A stretch of 64,000 nt of DNA from Patescibacteria group bacterium (GCA_040389125.1 JAZKAN010000001.1:111398-175397), one strand, 5' to 3'. Counted from the first letter of the stretch, positions 10,903 through 45,593 are shown. Notes: a model not told the origin generated them from the sequence alone. Numbers and translations are program-made.

Positions 10903-10933
10903 ATAAACAACCGCTTGTTCAATAGCAAGCGGT
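10903..10933 (-). terminator. Rho-independent terminator after the small basic ORF / integrase unit
   Basis: Minus strand reads ACCGCUUG-cuauugaa-CAAGCGGU followed by UGUUUAU. The stem starts at the stop codon. Confidence 0.6.
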
Positions 10934-11061
10934 CATTTGTCCCCTTTTTTCTTTCTCTTTTTTCCACTCAAAATACCCATCTTTTTGAAGTGGTCGACTC
11001 CGTGTTTTTTCTTTGTTGCAACCCCTCCTTTTTTACCTAGTTGTTGCGCAGCTTTATTCAT
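10933..11061 (-). CDS. Small basic protein, 42 aa (KGG-like lysine/glycine-rich)
   Basis: Below the ORF-track size cutoff. My translation is MNKAAQQLGKKGGVATKKKHGVDHFKKMGILSGKKRKKKGDK*. It lies 44 nt downstream of the integrase stop on the same strand and is followed by a terminator. Confidence 0.55.
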   Translation of the reverse strand: MNKAAQQLGKKGGVATKKKHGVDHFKKMGILSGKKRKKKGDK

Positions 11062-11105
11062 ACCTGCTAATTATAGCAAGCGGTTGTTAGTTTTGGAAAG
11101 GCGTA

Positions 11106-12023
11106 TTATGCACCCCTGAATTTGCGGTATCTCTTTTCTGCCTGTTTACCGTACATCATGGTATAGACCATAGAGCTCTCAATGCATGAGTGTCCAAGGA
11201 TGTTTGTAACGTCCGAGTTGGACCCACCCTTTTCAATAATATTTCGTCCCATGTAATGCCTCATTGAGTGAGCATTCATATTCTTTTCAAGGCCAGCTTT
11301 ATTGGAATAGCCTCTGAGCATCTCACAGACACCGCTTGGCTTGAATCTGTATCCCCTAGTTTTATTTGCTCCTGAGTTGTGGATCGAAATAAACAATGCG
11401 TTTGGATCCCGAAGGACATTTCCTCTTTTGAATCGTTCCCTTCTTTCTATCCATTTGTTGATCGCAATGCTCGTTTCCTTTGTCCAGAATATTTCTCGCA
11501 AAGGACGGCGAGTTTTTGCTTTCTCAGTTTTAATTAATGCTTTGTTATTTACAAGGTCGAGATCATCCATATCAAGTGCGAGGATCTCTCCATTTCGTGC
11601 GCCGGTATCCCAGAGTAATCTGATGATCGCTTCGTTTCTTACATTTCTTGGATCGGTATTTTGCGGAATGATATTGAGCAGCTTCTTGTATTCTTCAGGA
11701 GTAGCGACACGAGGGATCTTATATTCCTTCTGCGGTATCGGTATAAGGTTTTCATTGATAACTCTCCAACCTCTGAGATTGCAGAATTCAAAAAACTTTT
11801 TAAGCGCCATACACTTTGAAATAAAGCTGTTGTGCGCCCACCCGATCTCTCTCATGAGATTCAGGTATTCCATGACATTATTTAAACTCACGTCTTCGAT
11901 GTGGGGATTTCTCAAAAACAAACAAAAAAGACGAAGGTCTTTGTCATTACCCCGAGTAGTAGTTCCGTTTATCTTGAACGTTCGCCAATTGGTGAATTCG
12001 TCGATTGCGTCTTTGAATAGCAT
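11106..12023 (-). CDS. int: Tyrosine recombinase / phage integrase (XerC/D-like, 305 aa)
   Basis: SAM-like N-terminal domain. Catalytic signature: LWDTGARNGEILAL (Arg), HSMRHYMG (H-x-x-R), LGHSCIESSMVYTMM (His...Tyr). Confidence 0.93.
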   Translation of the reverse strand: MLFKDAIDEFTNWRTFKINGTTTRGNDKDLRLFCLFLRNPHIEDVSLNNVMEYLNLMREIGWAHNSFISKCMALKKFFEFCNLRGWRVINENLIPIPQKEYKIPRVATPEEYKKLLNIIPQNTDPRNVRNEAIIRLLWDTGARNGEILALDMDDLDLVNNKALIKTEKAKTRRPLREIFWTKETSIAINKWIERRERFKRGNVLRDPNALFISIHNSGANKTRGYRFKPSGVCEMLRGYSNKAGLEKNMNAHSMRHYMGRNIIEKGGSNSDVTNILGHSCIESSMVYTMMYGKQAEKRYRKFRGA

Positions 12024-12275
12024 AAATTAGTCAACTGAAAAGCCCACCTGATGCTAGTCAAAGTGGACTTTTAGTGACTTTCTGCCTATCAATGAAATTA
12101 ATCGGCGGTACGGTCATTCCCAAGCTTGGGATACATACTCTTGCGAGTATGCACTATTATCTTACTCTATTCCCTTGGGAGATAGCAAGATAACGCTTGA
12201 GCAAAGTCCATTGCTAGCATCCTGACCTAGTTACGGTCGGATCCCTTTCGGGACAATGGATTTATATTCAGTTGT
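12024..12275 (-). ncRNA. Structured 5' leader / candidate ncRNA upstream of integrase
   Basis: No ORF longer than 17 codons. A 19-bp long-range helix (12203-12221 with 12050-12071) encloses a multi-hairpin junction. GNRA loops GAAA (12241-12254) and GCAA (12134-12151) are present, with a promoter upstream. Family not recognised. Confidence 0.55.
12209..12258 (-). repeat. Copy 1 of a 50-nt module shared with 45116-45165
   Basis: The plus strand reads cattgctagcatc-N18-gatccctttcgggacaatg. The partner copy has the same 13-mer, the same 18-nt spacing and 18/19 identity in the second block. Confidence 0.85.
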
Positions 12276-12281
12276 CACTAC

Positions 12282-12310
12282 ATCCTAGTGTAGTGCCGTT
12301 CTATTGTCAA
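12282..12310 (-). promoter_or_regulatory. Putative sigma-70-type promoter for the integrase leader
   Basis: Minus strand TTGACA (12310-12305), 17-nt spacer, TAGGAT (12287-12282). Confidence 0.4.
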
Positions 12311-12391
12311 GAAGGACAATCTATGGTGTGAAGCAAAAACAAGTAAAATATTGAAAAAGTCAATAAAAATAAGGGTATTTTGGACGGTTAT

Positions 12392-12426
12392 ATAAAAAGT
12401 CGCACCACTTTTGAGGCGGTGCGACT
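12392..12426 (-). terminator. Rho-independent terminator of the PRTase gene
   Basis: 9-bp stem agtcgcacc/ggtgcgact (12398-12406 / 12418-12426), followed on the minus strand by UUUUU. Confidence 0.7.
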
Positions 12427-12450
12427 GAATTTGCGATCGAAGAATACGGG

Positions 12451-44557: not shown

Positions 44558-44566
44558 ATTTTTTGC

Positions 44567-44596
44567 TTGACTCGACGAAGGGGTCTTTGATACTAT
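44567..44596 (+). promoter_or_regulatory. Possible plus-strand (antisense) promoter
   Basis: TTGACT (44567-44572), 18-nt spacer, TACTAT (44591-44596). Confidence 0.3.
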
Positions 44597-44607
44597 GTAT
44601 CTACGGT

Positions 44608-44640
44608 AAGAGGCCTCCTTCGGGGGGTCTTTTATTTTTT
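44608..44640 (+). terminator. Plus-strand intrinsic-terminator-like hairpin (UUCG loop + U-run)
   Basis: AAGAGGCCUCC-UUCG-GGGGGUCUUU, then AUUUUUU. On the minus strand no U-run follows. Confidence 0.45.
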
Positions 44641-44895
44641 CTCGAATAATTTCTTTCTTCGCTTTTCGAGCGGTTCGACTAACTGCTCTATAGTTTCTTT
44701 GATCAAGCCATCATGTATTTGGTTAAAGGCTTGATCAGTTTTCTTTTGATCCTCAGCGTCTAGGGTTGTGAGTTTCCCCATCAACTCGCCAGTCCACTCA
44801 GCGATCGCATCCAGAGTTTCAGGTACGATCCGTTCATCAACGATGCTCGTCGCCCTCTCTCTGAGAAGCTTCTTGATTTCCTGCTGGGTTGTCAT
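44632..44895 (-). CDS. Hypothetical early protein (87 aa)
   Basis: ATG-initiated ORF. No motif. Confidence 0.55.
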   Translation of the reverse strand: MTTQQEIKKLLRERATSIVDERIVPETLDAIAEWTGELMGKLTTLDAEDQKKTDQAFNQIHDGLIKETIEQLVEPLEKRRKKLFEKK

Positions 44896-45127
44896 AGACC
44901 TTGTTTCTGATCTCTTTCAGATCTTGGAGTTTCTTCTTGCGCTCAAGACTGAGAGTCTTGTTTTTCTGCAATCGAATCTCTTTTAGTTGATAATCGATAT
45001 CGACAACGTCTCCTATGGACAATCGATATTTTTCTGTGAGCCACTTACCTTCGAGGATTAAGGCTGGTATGCCATATCGTCTATAGGTAACTGCTCGAGT
45101 AGTTTTGAGATTTTTCATTGCTAGCAT
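44837..45127 (-). CDS. SymE/AbrB-fold (SpoVT-AbrB-like) protein
   Basis: YRRYGIPALILEGKWLTEKYRLSIGDVVDIDYQLKEIRL resembles the E. coli SymE core (IPAITLKGQWL...). The 3' end overlaps the next ORF by 59 nt. Confidence 0.72.
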   Translation of the reverse strand: MLAMKNLKTTRAVTYRRYGIPALILEGKWLTEKYRLSIGDVVDIDYQLKEIRLQKNKTLSLERKKKLQDLKEIRNKVYDNPAGNQEASQREGDEHR

Positions 45128-45165
45128 CTGCCGTTGTACATCGGCTGATCCCTATCGGGACAATG
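45116..45165 (-). repeat. Copy 2 of the 50-nt module shared with 12209-12258; covers the SymE-like start codon
   Basis: The plus strand reads cattgctagcatc-N18-gatccctatcgggacaatg. ATG at 45127-45125. Confidence 0.85.
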
Positions 45166-45172
45166 ATTGTGA

Positions 45173-45538
45173 TTACCTATATTTCTTTCTAATCTCGAAT
45201 GCTTCCGGGTAGAGCCCCTTCTCTTTGAACAAGAGATCGACTAAGTGAGCATCGCCTTTGATGCCAACGTGCCACTGATTTACTTCGTGGACTGGCCGGT
45301 GATATTCCTTGTAGTCATAGATAGTAAGGACACACGGACGCTTCTTGTTTGTTGACTTGAAAGCCCATTCAGCACGGACTTTTTCGTCGCCGCACTTCCA
45401 TTCGCCCTCTTGGGTTCTGTCATGGGGCGCTCCCAACTTATCCACAAGCTCGTGGTAGGAGATATGGAGATAGCCATGAAAGCCGGAGTGGAAAGTATCT
45501 TTGTGAGATGCTTCTTTGAACGTAGGGGTAGGTTTCAT
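45173..45538 (-). CDS. Hypothetical protein (121 aa), first gene inside the right junction
   Basis: ATG ORF. No motif. Confidence 0.6.
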   Translation of the reverse strand: MKPTPTFKEASHKDTFHSGFHGYLHISYHELVDKLGAPHDRTQEGEWKCGDEKVRAEWAFKSTNKKRPCVLTIYDYKEYHRPVHEVNQWHVGIKGDAHLVDLLFKEKGLYPEAFEIRKKYR

Positions 45539-45593
45539 AATCGCCTTACTTTAGGGTTAATAATTTTTCGACCTTTTTAGACGGGACCGGCAT

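Follow-up and report, generated by a model that had tools for sequence, protein, structure and literature searches.

A probable temperate siphovirus-type prophage at the 3′ end of ychF in a Paceibacteria-type genome

A stretch of 64,000 nucleotides from a Patescibacteria group bacterium (GCA_040389125.1 JAZKAN010000001.1:111398-175397), here called the window and numbered from its first letter, very probably harbours one temperate siphovirus-type prophage of 34,965 bp (10736-45700) in a Paceibacteria-type host. Read along the minus strand, the element leads from a junction in ychF through early and replication, packaging, head, tail and lysis genes, followed by variable defence cargo, SppA, a YerC/TrpR-like protein, a phosphoribosyltransferase (PRTase)-like protein, the integrase and the distal junction. 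An original prediction, made from the sequence alone, had placed the prophage at 10903-45593; the element itself is real, yet its true ends, at approximately 10736 and 45700, lie ~170 bp farther to the left and ~107 bp farther to the right.

The assignment to siphovirus-type phages is based on a full set of packaging, head, tail and lysis genes, on a tail tube and a tape measure, and on an integrase with all of its catalytic residues, and the same features bear out the earlier proposal of a temperate phage. No tail sheath was detectable among the phage genes of the window. The gene inventory, recovered by listing open reading frames (ORFs) and by Pfam, PHROGs, NCBIfam and PADLOC family searches, includes TerL, portal, S78 protease, HK97-type capsid, connectors, tail tube, tape measure and amidase; in addition, an attachment (att) duplication is found at both flanks of a target site that is uninterrupted in relatives. 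As had been noted before, the organisation is essentially single-stranded, the only plus-strand ORFs being a 93-aa ORF (14002-14283) and two cargo methyltransferase genes (18665-19687 and 19689-20498). The reported lack of a tRNA or tmRNA target likewise stands, since neither was detected in the window.

Integration at the 3′ end of ychF

The best matches of the window's YchF are 61-70% identical and come from metagenome-assembled genomes (MAGs) of Taylorbacteria, Paceibacteria and Parcubacteria with which synteny is also held in common, supporting the host assignment to the candidate phyla radiation (CPR)/Patescibacteria that the original prediction had drawn from gene content. Downstream of ychF, these relatives have DUF5671 and, after it, leucyl-tRNA synthetase (LeuRS), a sigma-like factor, DUF8128, MltG and MnmA, which is the order of the window's left flank, individual genes being undetected in some of the loci. 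The gap between ychF and DUF5671 measures 50-330 bp in seven relatives (L006, L009, L015, L024, L031, L034 and L044; L numbers denote loci and contigs used for comparison) and 453 bp in the closest one (L146, YchF 84% identical). Because ychF adjoins DUF5671 in relatives, the whole interval from 10693 to 45685 has been inserted at this conserved junction. Relatives without the insertion were thus found, and the genes in question are not conserved chromosomal content without boundaries. Both host-phage junctions are confirmed by two separate Logan contigs, that is, by independent assemblies.

An exact k-mer search (k>=10) between the candidate junction zones returned no att repeat; subsequent alignment of the junctions exposed a diverged copy of the ychF end in the left intergenic region. 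At the ychF-proximal junction (45686-45715, minus strand), the functional gene, its ORF full at 365 aa, ends with ...GATGGCGATGTGATTGAGTTTAGGATATAG (45715-45686), which encodes its last 10 codons, 'QDGDVIEFRI*'. The integrase-proximal junction (10721-10750, minus strand) holds the second copy, GAAGATGGTGGTGTGATAGAGTTTAAGATTTGA (10750-10721), which reads 'EDGGVIEFKI*' with its stop codon at 10721-10723 and would be the displaced original 3′ end of ychF; an in-frame stop precedes it, and the ATG of DUF5671 follows 28 nt downstream. Together they form a 26-nt flanking repeat (10725-10750 and 45690-45715) that is identical at 21 of 26 positions and whose longest perfect block is the 7-bp core GAGTTTA (10729-10735 and 45694-45700). 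The degenerate 26-mer GATGGnGnTGTGATnGAGTTTAnGAT matches the window exactly twice, as compared with no match in 100 shuffles. The original prediction had seen no convincing direct repeat; the right copy of this imperfect one lies inside ychF, outside the interval 45539-45600 that it had taken as the right junction.

Several observations point to a phage contribution to these junctions. On the ychF side, what lies 3′ of the core (GGATATAG, then CACTACCATCTTCTAGG) is phage-derived: it matches the region upstream of the homolog of u121, the first phage gene after the ychF junction, in phage contigs L094 and L095. In both contigs, a mimic of the ychF end ('DGDVMEFKI*'), preceded by non-ychF sequence and followed by CAACCCCATCTTCTAAG, is located ~130 bp upstream of the u121 homolog. 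In L127, which encodes a 75% identical integrase, AGTTTAAGATATAA is located ~400 bp downstream of the integrase gene. The left copy in the window breaks an otherwise invariant Asp codon of ychF (GGT for GAY), which fits a phage mimic 5′ of the crossover. When the left half of the left junction is fused with the right half of its counterpart, the reconstructed attP has a perfect 10-bp inverted repeat, AGAAGATGGT...ACCATCTTCT, for which L095 has a covarying counterpart, AAGATGGGG...CCCCATCTT.

We propose that the phage's own tyrosine integrase recombined attP with the last ~10 codons of the host ychF. The attP site, with the predicted junction ...AGAAGATGGTGGTGTGATAGAGTTTAGGATATAGCACTACCATCTTCT..., would imitate the 3′ end of ychF, the mimic being flanked in the phage by the 10-bp inverted repeat; attB would have read ...CAGGATGGCGATGTGATTGAGTTTAAGATTTGATGCGTATAC... 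before integration. Crossover would have occurred within or beside the core GAGTTTA, its exact point being inferred because the flanking repeat is perfect over just 7 bp. Phage DNA would now provide the terminal codons and the stop of ychF, keeping the gene intact at 365 aa, and the original end would have been displaced to the far junction, directly upstream of DUF5671. The outcome is that of e14/icd-type integration, namely a target ORF completed by phage sequence and a displaced pseudo-3′ end at the distal junction.

This att logic is family-wide. Mimics of gene ends occur in related contigs, of ychF in L095 and L127 and of gap in L108, L162 and L128, although some of them are tandem prophage junctions and not free attP sites. 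Sister phages whose integrases are 45-49% identical use the 3′ end of GAPDH in the same manner: host GAPDH reads into phage sequence in L092, L136 and L145, and the Parcubacteria genome L160 has the order integrase, helix-turn-helix (HTH) gene, GAPDH-end remnant and host rpiB. Elsewhere (L087, 1-390; L098, 1-385), the C-terminus of yet another host-like ORF ('...SEAEKAGFTLSASCQ*') lies upstream of the u121 homolog, hinting at a third type of attB in the family.

One element, its cargo and its integrase

The original prediction allowed that SppA, and possibly its neighbours, could be host genes, in which case there would be two adjacent elements. Gene order in relatives speaks for SppA, the YerC/TrpR-like gene, the PRTase-like gene and the integrase gene all being phage genes. 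In every context inspected, the PRTase-like gene stands in a block (SppA) - YerC/TrpR-like - PRTase-like - integrase that is joined to phage genes or to an att remnant, and the order from SppA to the integrase is also seen in L160 and L162. Particularly informative is the 59.9-kb IMG/VR contig 3300025323_000513 (L108, L133, L139 and L145), in which two different related prophages lie in tandem at the 3′ end of host GAPDH with a hybrid att between them. Phage A (~37 kb) starts at the GAPDH junction, comprises, in this order, early genes, cargo and the genes for SppA, the TrpR-like protein, the PRTase-like protein and the integrase, and ends at the hybrid att, after which phage B begins. The module thus sits within the att-bounded phage A, making it part of an att-bounded unit. 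L162, a 93-kb MAG contig, has a similar tandem-prophage look. The adjacency of integrase and u121 in L108, L096 and L162 was also considered as a free attP and rejected, given that at least the contig just described consists of two tandem prophages beside host GAPDH.

Within this module, the tyrosine integrase (11106-12023, minus strand, 305 aa; Pfam Phage_integrase, 8.7e-26) has its catalytic residues, located by inspection, at R143, H252, R255, H278 and Y287, and homologs of 45-75% identity are found in IMG/VR phage contigs. The PRTase-like protein (12451-13467, minus strand, 338 aa), of type I PRTase fold with extra N- and C-terminal parts, is a highly conserved hallmark of the prophage family: more than 200 homologs or clusters at 60-96% identity were recovered, making it more conserved than the neighbouring integrase or SppA, and an IMG/VR scan with the L108 homolog as query also gave matches. 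AlphaFold2 (AF2) modelled it (pLDDT 85) as a type I PRTase core with additional domains, and the protein could be a nucleotide-salvage enzyme or a regulator. Next to it are encoded a YerC/YecD-family TrpR-related HTH protein (13551-13862, minus strand; Pfam 6.1e-15; NCBIfam TIGR02531, 60.2 bits vs a cut-off of 42.2), whose homologs in relatives are 68-71% identical, and a phage-borne SppA-type S49 peptidase with an N-terminal membrane segment (14291-15235, minus strand) that is conserved in relatives.

Between SppA and the lysis genes lies the variable defence cargo (15429-22739, GC 0.38). It comprises genes for a Cas4-like PD-(D/E)XK nuclease (15429-16223, minus strand), an AAA_13/PDC-S06 candidate (16227-18515, minus strand), a D12 methyltransferase (18665-19687, plus strand), an N6_N4 methyltransferase (19689-20498, plus strand) and two proteins of 167 and 578 aa (20495-22739, minus strand). 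The PDC-S06 candidate matches the PADLOC model PDLC04895 over its full length (6.5e-65, residues 3-734 of 762) as well as Pfam AAA_13 (1.8e-32), and the two methyltransferases match PADLOC MTase_II (5.4e-97 and 4.1e-50). The 167-aa and 578-aa proteins, possibly the endonuclease, had no match in the family searches, PADLOC and NCBIfam included. With two further methyltransferase genes in the early module (39610-40641 and 40611-41894), the predicted total of four is reached. Relatives have other cargo at the same position, i.e. helicase/methyltransferase, HSP70-like/AAA or McrB-like sets, and the stretch from lysis to SppA is a hotspot for defence cargo and no second element.

Some observations count against a single prophage inserted by its own integrase into ychF. 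GC content is 0.455 in the phage core and 0.38-0.41 in the cargo and on the integrase side, which departs from the core, the host flanks having 0.385-0.40. Logan contigs (SRR26324622) end at ~23124, inside the amidase gene, and at ~45122, at the start of the AbrB-like gene. A metagenome scan with DUF5671 did not find an empty site of the same species, its best match being 58% identical. The flanking repeat is imperfect outside its core, the predicted attP junction is absent from IMG/VR, and the window has no homolog of the small HTH ORF located behind the integrase in relatives.

The GC step near 22.8 kb and the contig end at ~23124 could be taken to separate two adjacent elements, an integrase-bearing defence island (~10.7-22.8 kb) and a phage (22.8-45.7 kb) without an integrase or having lost it; the complete difference in cargo between relatives, and a degree of conservation of the PRTase-like protein that is more usual for host genes, would agree with this. 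We consider such a composite unlikely, as there are only two att copies, both at the outer ends, and as the block from SppA to the integrase recurs inside att-bounded relatives that use another attB. Moreover, an independent NCBI contig is unbroken, at 96-100% protein identity, from the capsid-adjacent head-tail genes through the amidase into the cargo methyltransferases; in L133/L145, a single pair of GAPDH-end copies encloses both the phage core and the same integrase-side module; the integrase directly follows the tail and lysis genes in L130; and the same RNA motif (see below) is found ahead of the integrase and again ahead of the first early gene. The element is therefore one, and the breaks in the Logan contigs could reflect mosaicism, in that the segment from 23.1 to 45.1 kb may be present as several variants in the SRR26324622 sample. 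Exact look-ups of the TerL and capsid protein sequences returned no record. In another locus (L004), the amidase is identical to that of the window and its neighbours have diverged.

With regard to the recombinase, its 305 aa, its SAM-like N-terminal domain and its best NCBIfam models (XerA, XerC and XerD) would suit a host XerC/XerD next to which a phage lies by chance. This is very improbable: the scores of 110-125 bits fall far short of the cut-offs of 220-335, the gene sits within the ychF-DUF5671 insertion, its homologs in phage contigs adjoin att mimics, and no such gene was seen at a conserved chromosomal position of phage-free relatives among 45 related ychF loci. A more serious contender, though one to which we give clearly less than even weight, is a grounded prophage that is structurally complete and has become excision-defective through damage to its recombination module. 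Small HTH ORFs lie downstream of the integrase in L127, L108, L160 and L162, with other small HTH-like ORFs there in L128-L130; in the window, the corresponding region between integrase and att core (10760-11105), the P arm, is occupied by a 42-aa Lys/Gly-rich ORF (10933-11061, minus strand) and by three copies of AGCAAGCGGT (10910-10919, 10924-10933 and 11075-11084). These copies, which show no enrichment beyond chance across the window, are kept as candidate arm-type sites only. Provided that the excision factor is this HTH protein, it may have been lost and the prophage may be unable to excise; the 5 mismatches among the 26 att positions and the missing attP junction in IMG/VR would be in line with this. 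On the other hand, all other genes are intact, the catalytic residues of the integrase are kept, mismatches outside the overlap are normal where attP only mimics attB (L095 has the same pattern), and the role of the HTH ORF as excision factor is an assumption. The excision competence of this otherwise intact-looking prophage is accordingly uncertain.

Intactness, as originally suggested, is borne out for the core: alignments of the replication, packaging, head, connector and tube proteins with several independent relatives cover 96-100% of their length (identity to IMG/VR relatives <=97%), and no truncation or pseudogenisation was found. Pfam and PHROGs define a lysis and tail module (22876-30359, minus strand) with amidase_2 (22876-23481), a holin-like protein (23500-23847), a Gly-rich fibre (24271-25395), a distal tail/hub protein (25953-27443), the tape measure (27440-28846), a chaperone (29035-29367) and the tail tube (29370-30359). 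The head-tail joining, head and packaging module (30546-39576, minus strand) includes gp10-like and gp6-like connectors, the HK97-type capsid (32882-34114), the S78 protease (34074-35051), a portal fused to MuF (35072-37270), TerL (37587-39056; phrog_38, 4.9e-65) and a putative TerS (38986-39576). The same searches place a Dcm C5 methyltransferase (39610-40641) and a ParB-N6_N4 methyltransferase (40611-41894) in the early and replication module (39610-44895, minus strand), along with RusA, a Rep-O-like initiator, an AAA_24/Sak4-like ATPase and small ORFs. The first conserved early gene (44837-45118, minus strand) encodes a 93-aa, possibly AbrB/MazE-like protein with more than 200 homologs, the N-terminal 55 aa being nearly invariant, and u121 (45173-45538, minus strand), also covered by the family searches, encodes a 121-aa protein. 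The spacer that separates the AAA_24 gene from an 87-aa ORF has, on the plus strand and antisense to the early genes, a promoter-like site with a strong terminator-like hairpin immediately behind it (44567-44636).

Two features of the host flanks may be mentioned here. The leucyl-tRNA synthetase (6141-9158, minus strand, 1005 aa) carries an inserted NUDIX hydrolase domain with the Nudix box GGIEEGEDVVDAARREVREETG, as reflected in its Pfam order tRNA-synt_1 ... NUDIX ... tRNA-synt_1. On the other side of the prophage, 46898-57683 is occupied by a Liv-type ABC transporter operon with six paralogous periplasmic binding-protein genes (Peripla_BP_6), in what is a small CPR genome.

A probable three-way-junction RNA and candidate regulators

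The k-mer search for att also brought up a 50-nt repeat (12209-12258 and 45116-45165). It was rejected as an att site: the 18 nt in its centre are not the same in both copies, an element bounded by it would exclude the integrase and u121, and it corresponds to a folded RNA that is conserved in relatives. This RNA of ~50 nt, whose three-way-junction structure we hold to be real with high confidence, occurs in two minus-strand copies, one in the integrase leader (12209-12258) and one at the start of the first early gene (45116-45165). Helix P1 is formed by CAUUG/CAAUG, P2 by CCC-GNRA-GGG and P3 by variable, always complementary sequences, with GCUAN as the single-stranded junction; in the 45116-45165 copy, the AUG of the AbrB-like gene is contained in the 3′ strand of P1.

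The same fold was obtained for six sequences of the motif. A covariance model built on 12 instances gave 18 hits, 14 of them distinct, including L127 and L130 from outside the training set, in which P1 carries compensatory changes (CGUUG/CAACG and CGCUG/CAGCG). Among the hits, 91.9% of cells are paired and double changes affect 9 of 15 pairs, values that none of 500 shuffles reached and that were far lower in slid controls; covariation extends to all three helices. As in the window, two copies per prophage are present in L108/L133 (L108, 1363-1414 and 3743-3798) and L162 (11202-11254 and 13699-13751); further instances lie at 9786-9838 in L127 and at 9819-9872 in L130. Rfam 15 gave no hit at gathering thresholds in the whole window, integrase leader included, and nothing overlapping the motifs at E up to 10. 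A looser motif pattern retrieved three extra loci from IMG/VR, none of which passed the covariance model.

The integrase-side copy is embedded in a structured leader of ~270 nt (12024-12310, minus strand) that combines a promoter, the three-way-junction motif, a GNRA hairpin, a palindromic hairpin and an intrinsic terminator. The promoter, TTGACA-17-TAGGAT (12282-12310), has a dyad, ATTGTC-N6-GACAAT, over its -35 box; the motif starts ~25 nt downstream of it, and the terminator (~12038-12068) lies 15 nt before the ATG of the integrase. Across five loci, 23 of 58 predicted pairs in the leader show compensatory changes, and the spacer between PRTase-like and integrase genes shares, as a whole, ~74% identity with its counterpart in a phage that has an integrase of just 45% identity. 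These features suggest control of the integrase by attenuation or antitermination, or else a stable noncoding RNA.

As stated in the original prediction, the window lacks a divergent CI/Cro-type repressor/antirepressor pair, and its candidate regulators, i.e. the YerC/YecD TrpR-related protein, the 93-aa early protein and the PRTase-fold protein, are all encoded co-directionally on the minus strand. The TrpR-like candidate named there is upheld by its NCBIfam score above the cut-off and is the best candidate for a repressor, one that may maintain lysogeny. Searches of Pfam, NCBIfam and PDB sequences with E values of up to 10 yielded nothing in favour of the label 'SymE/AbrB-like' given to the 93-aa protein; the AF2 model of this protein (pLDDT 61) has a beta-beta-alpha-beta-beta arrangement for which AbrB-N, MazE and Sso7c4 are the top Foldseek hits, albeit weak ones (E ~1). 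The PRTase-like protein was also considered as a PyrR-type RNA-binding regulator of the RNA motif. The case is weak, its fold matches being to generic type I PRTases and the similarity being confined to the generic PRPP loop. Furthermore, L127 and L130 have the motif and no PRTase-like gene within 10 kb, which argues against this protein as an obligate partner of the motif.

The RNA motif may represent a new class of phage regulatory RNA. We tentatively suggest, while judging it less probable than its opposite, that the motif and the terminator-containing leader are the main control element of the lysis-lysogeny decision, in place of a CI/Cro-type switch. By analogy, the motif could act in nut/put fashion and enable RNA polymerase to pass terminators farther downstream. 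Alternatively, it could sense a ligand or protein and thereby gate expression of the integrase as well as, with the AUG in P1, translation of the first early gene.

Relation to known phages and significance

Phage 21 integrates at the 3′ end of icd. The same is true of e14 in E. coli, where the duplicated segment is 163 bp (PMC6379469). The prophage described here resembles e14/icd in several respects: the target of the tyrosine integrase is the 3′ end of a conserved protein gene, the terminal codons are supplied by the phage, the gene remains functional and a pseudo-3′ end is found at the far end. It differs in duplicating ~26-30 nt instead of 163 bp, in its CPR host, in the use of ychF (gap in the sister phages) and in placing the mimic within a 10-bp inverted repeat.

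The nut sites of lambda (boxB) and the put RNAs of HK022 are compact hairpins present twice per phage, in promoter-proximal positions of units that contain terminators. The RNA motif may be likened to these in being present twice per phage, promoter-proximal and upstream of a terminator, and its P2 helix CCC-GNRA-GGG is reminiscent of boxB. However, the motif is a three-way junction whose closing helix can hold a start codon, and it comes with no boxA, no recognisable N-like protein and no sequence similarity to those elements. As for the virion, the prophage shares with HK97-like siphoviruses (Caudoviricetes) a Phage_capsid major capsid protein, S78 protease, portal, gp6/gp10-like connectors, tail tube and tape measure. 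Here, in contrast, the portal is fused to MuF, the genes are co-directional, and a module of YerC/TrpR-like gene, PRTase-like gene, structured leader and integrase stands in the place of the divergent CI/Cro switch.

Temperate tailed prophages of ~35-45 kb that carry C-5 cytosine methylase genes are described from Paceibacteria MAGs of aquifers in one report (PMC12455944), and the prophage of the window is equally temperate and tailed, falls into the same size range, resides in a Paceibacteria genome and encodes a C-5 methylase. In the portion consulted, that report gives no att sites, integrase targets or regulatory elements, the words 'integrase' and 'attachment' being absent. The kind of element is hence ordinary, both Paceibacteria prophages of similar size and integration at the 3′ ends of protein genes being known already. 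Features that exceed this are the series of ychF and gap targets, the conserved module on the lysogeny side and the undescribed RNA.

The CPR/Patescibacteria represent a large and mostly uncultured part of bacterial diversity, and to our knowledge, there are almost no experimental tests on their phages. Against this background, the locus provides a fully delimited temperate phage for which both the integrase and its target are defined. The 3′ end of ychF is strongly conserved across Paceibacteria, and sister phages retargeted to the 3′ end of GAPDH constitute a natural series for the evolution of integrase specificity. The integrase/target pair could seed integrative genetic tools for organisms that are currently without them. 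At the same time, such prophages bring defence cargo to very small genomes, in this case two type II DNA methyltransferases, PDC-S06 and a Cas4-like nuclease. Lastly, the locus points to a testable RNA-based control region instead of the classical divergent repressor switch.

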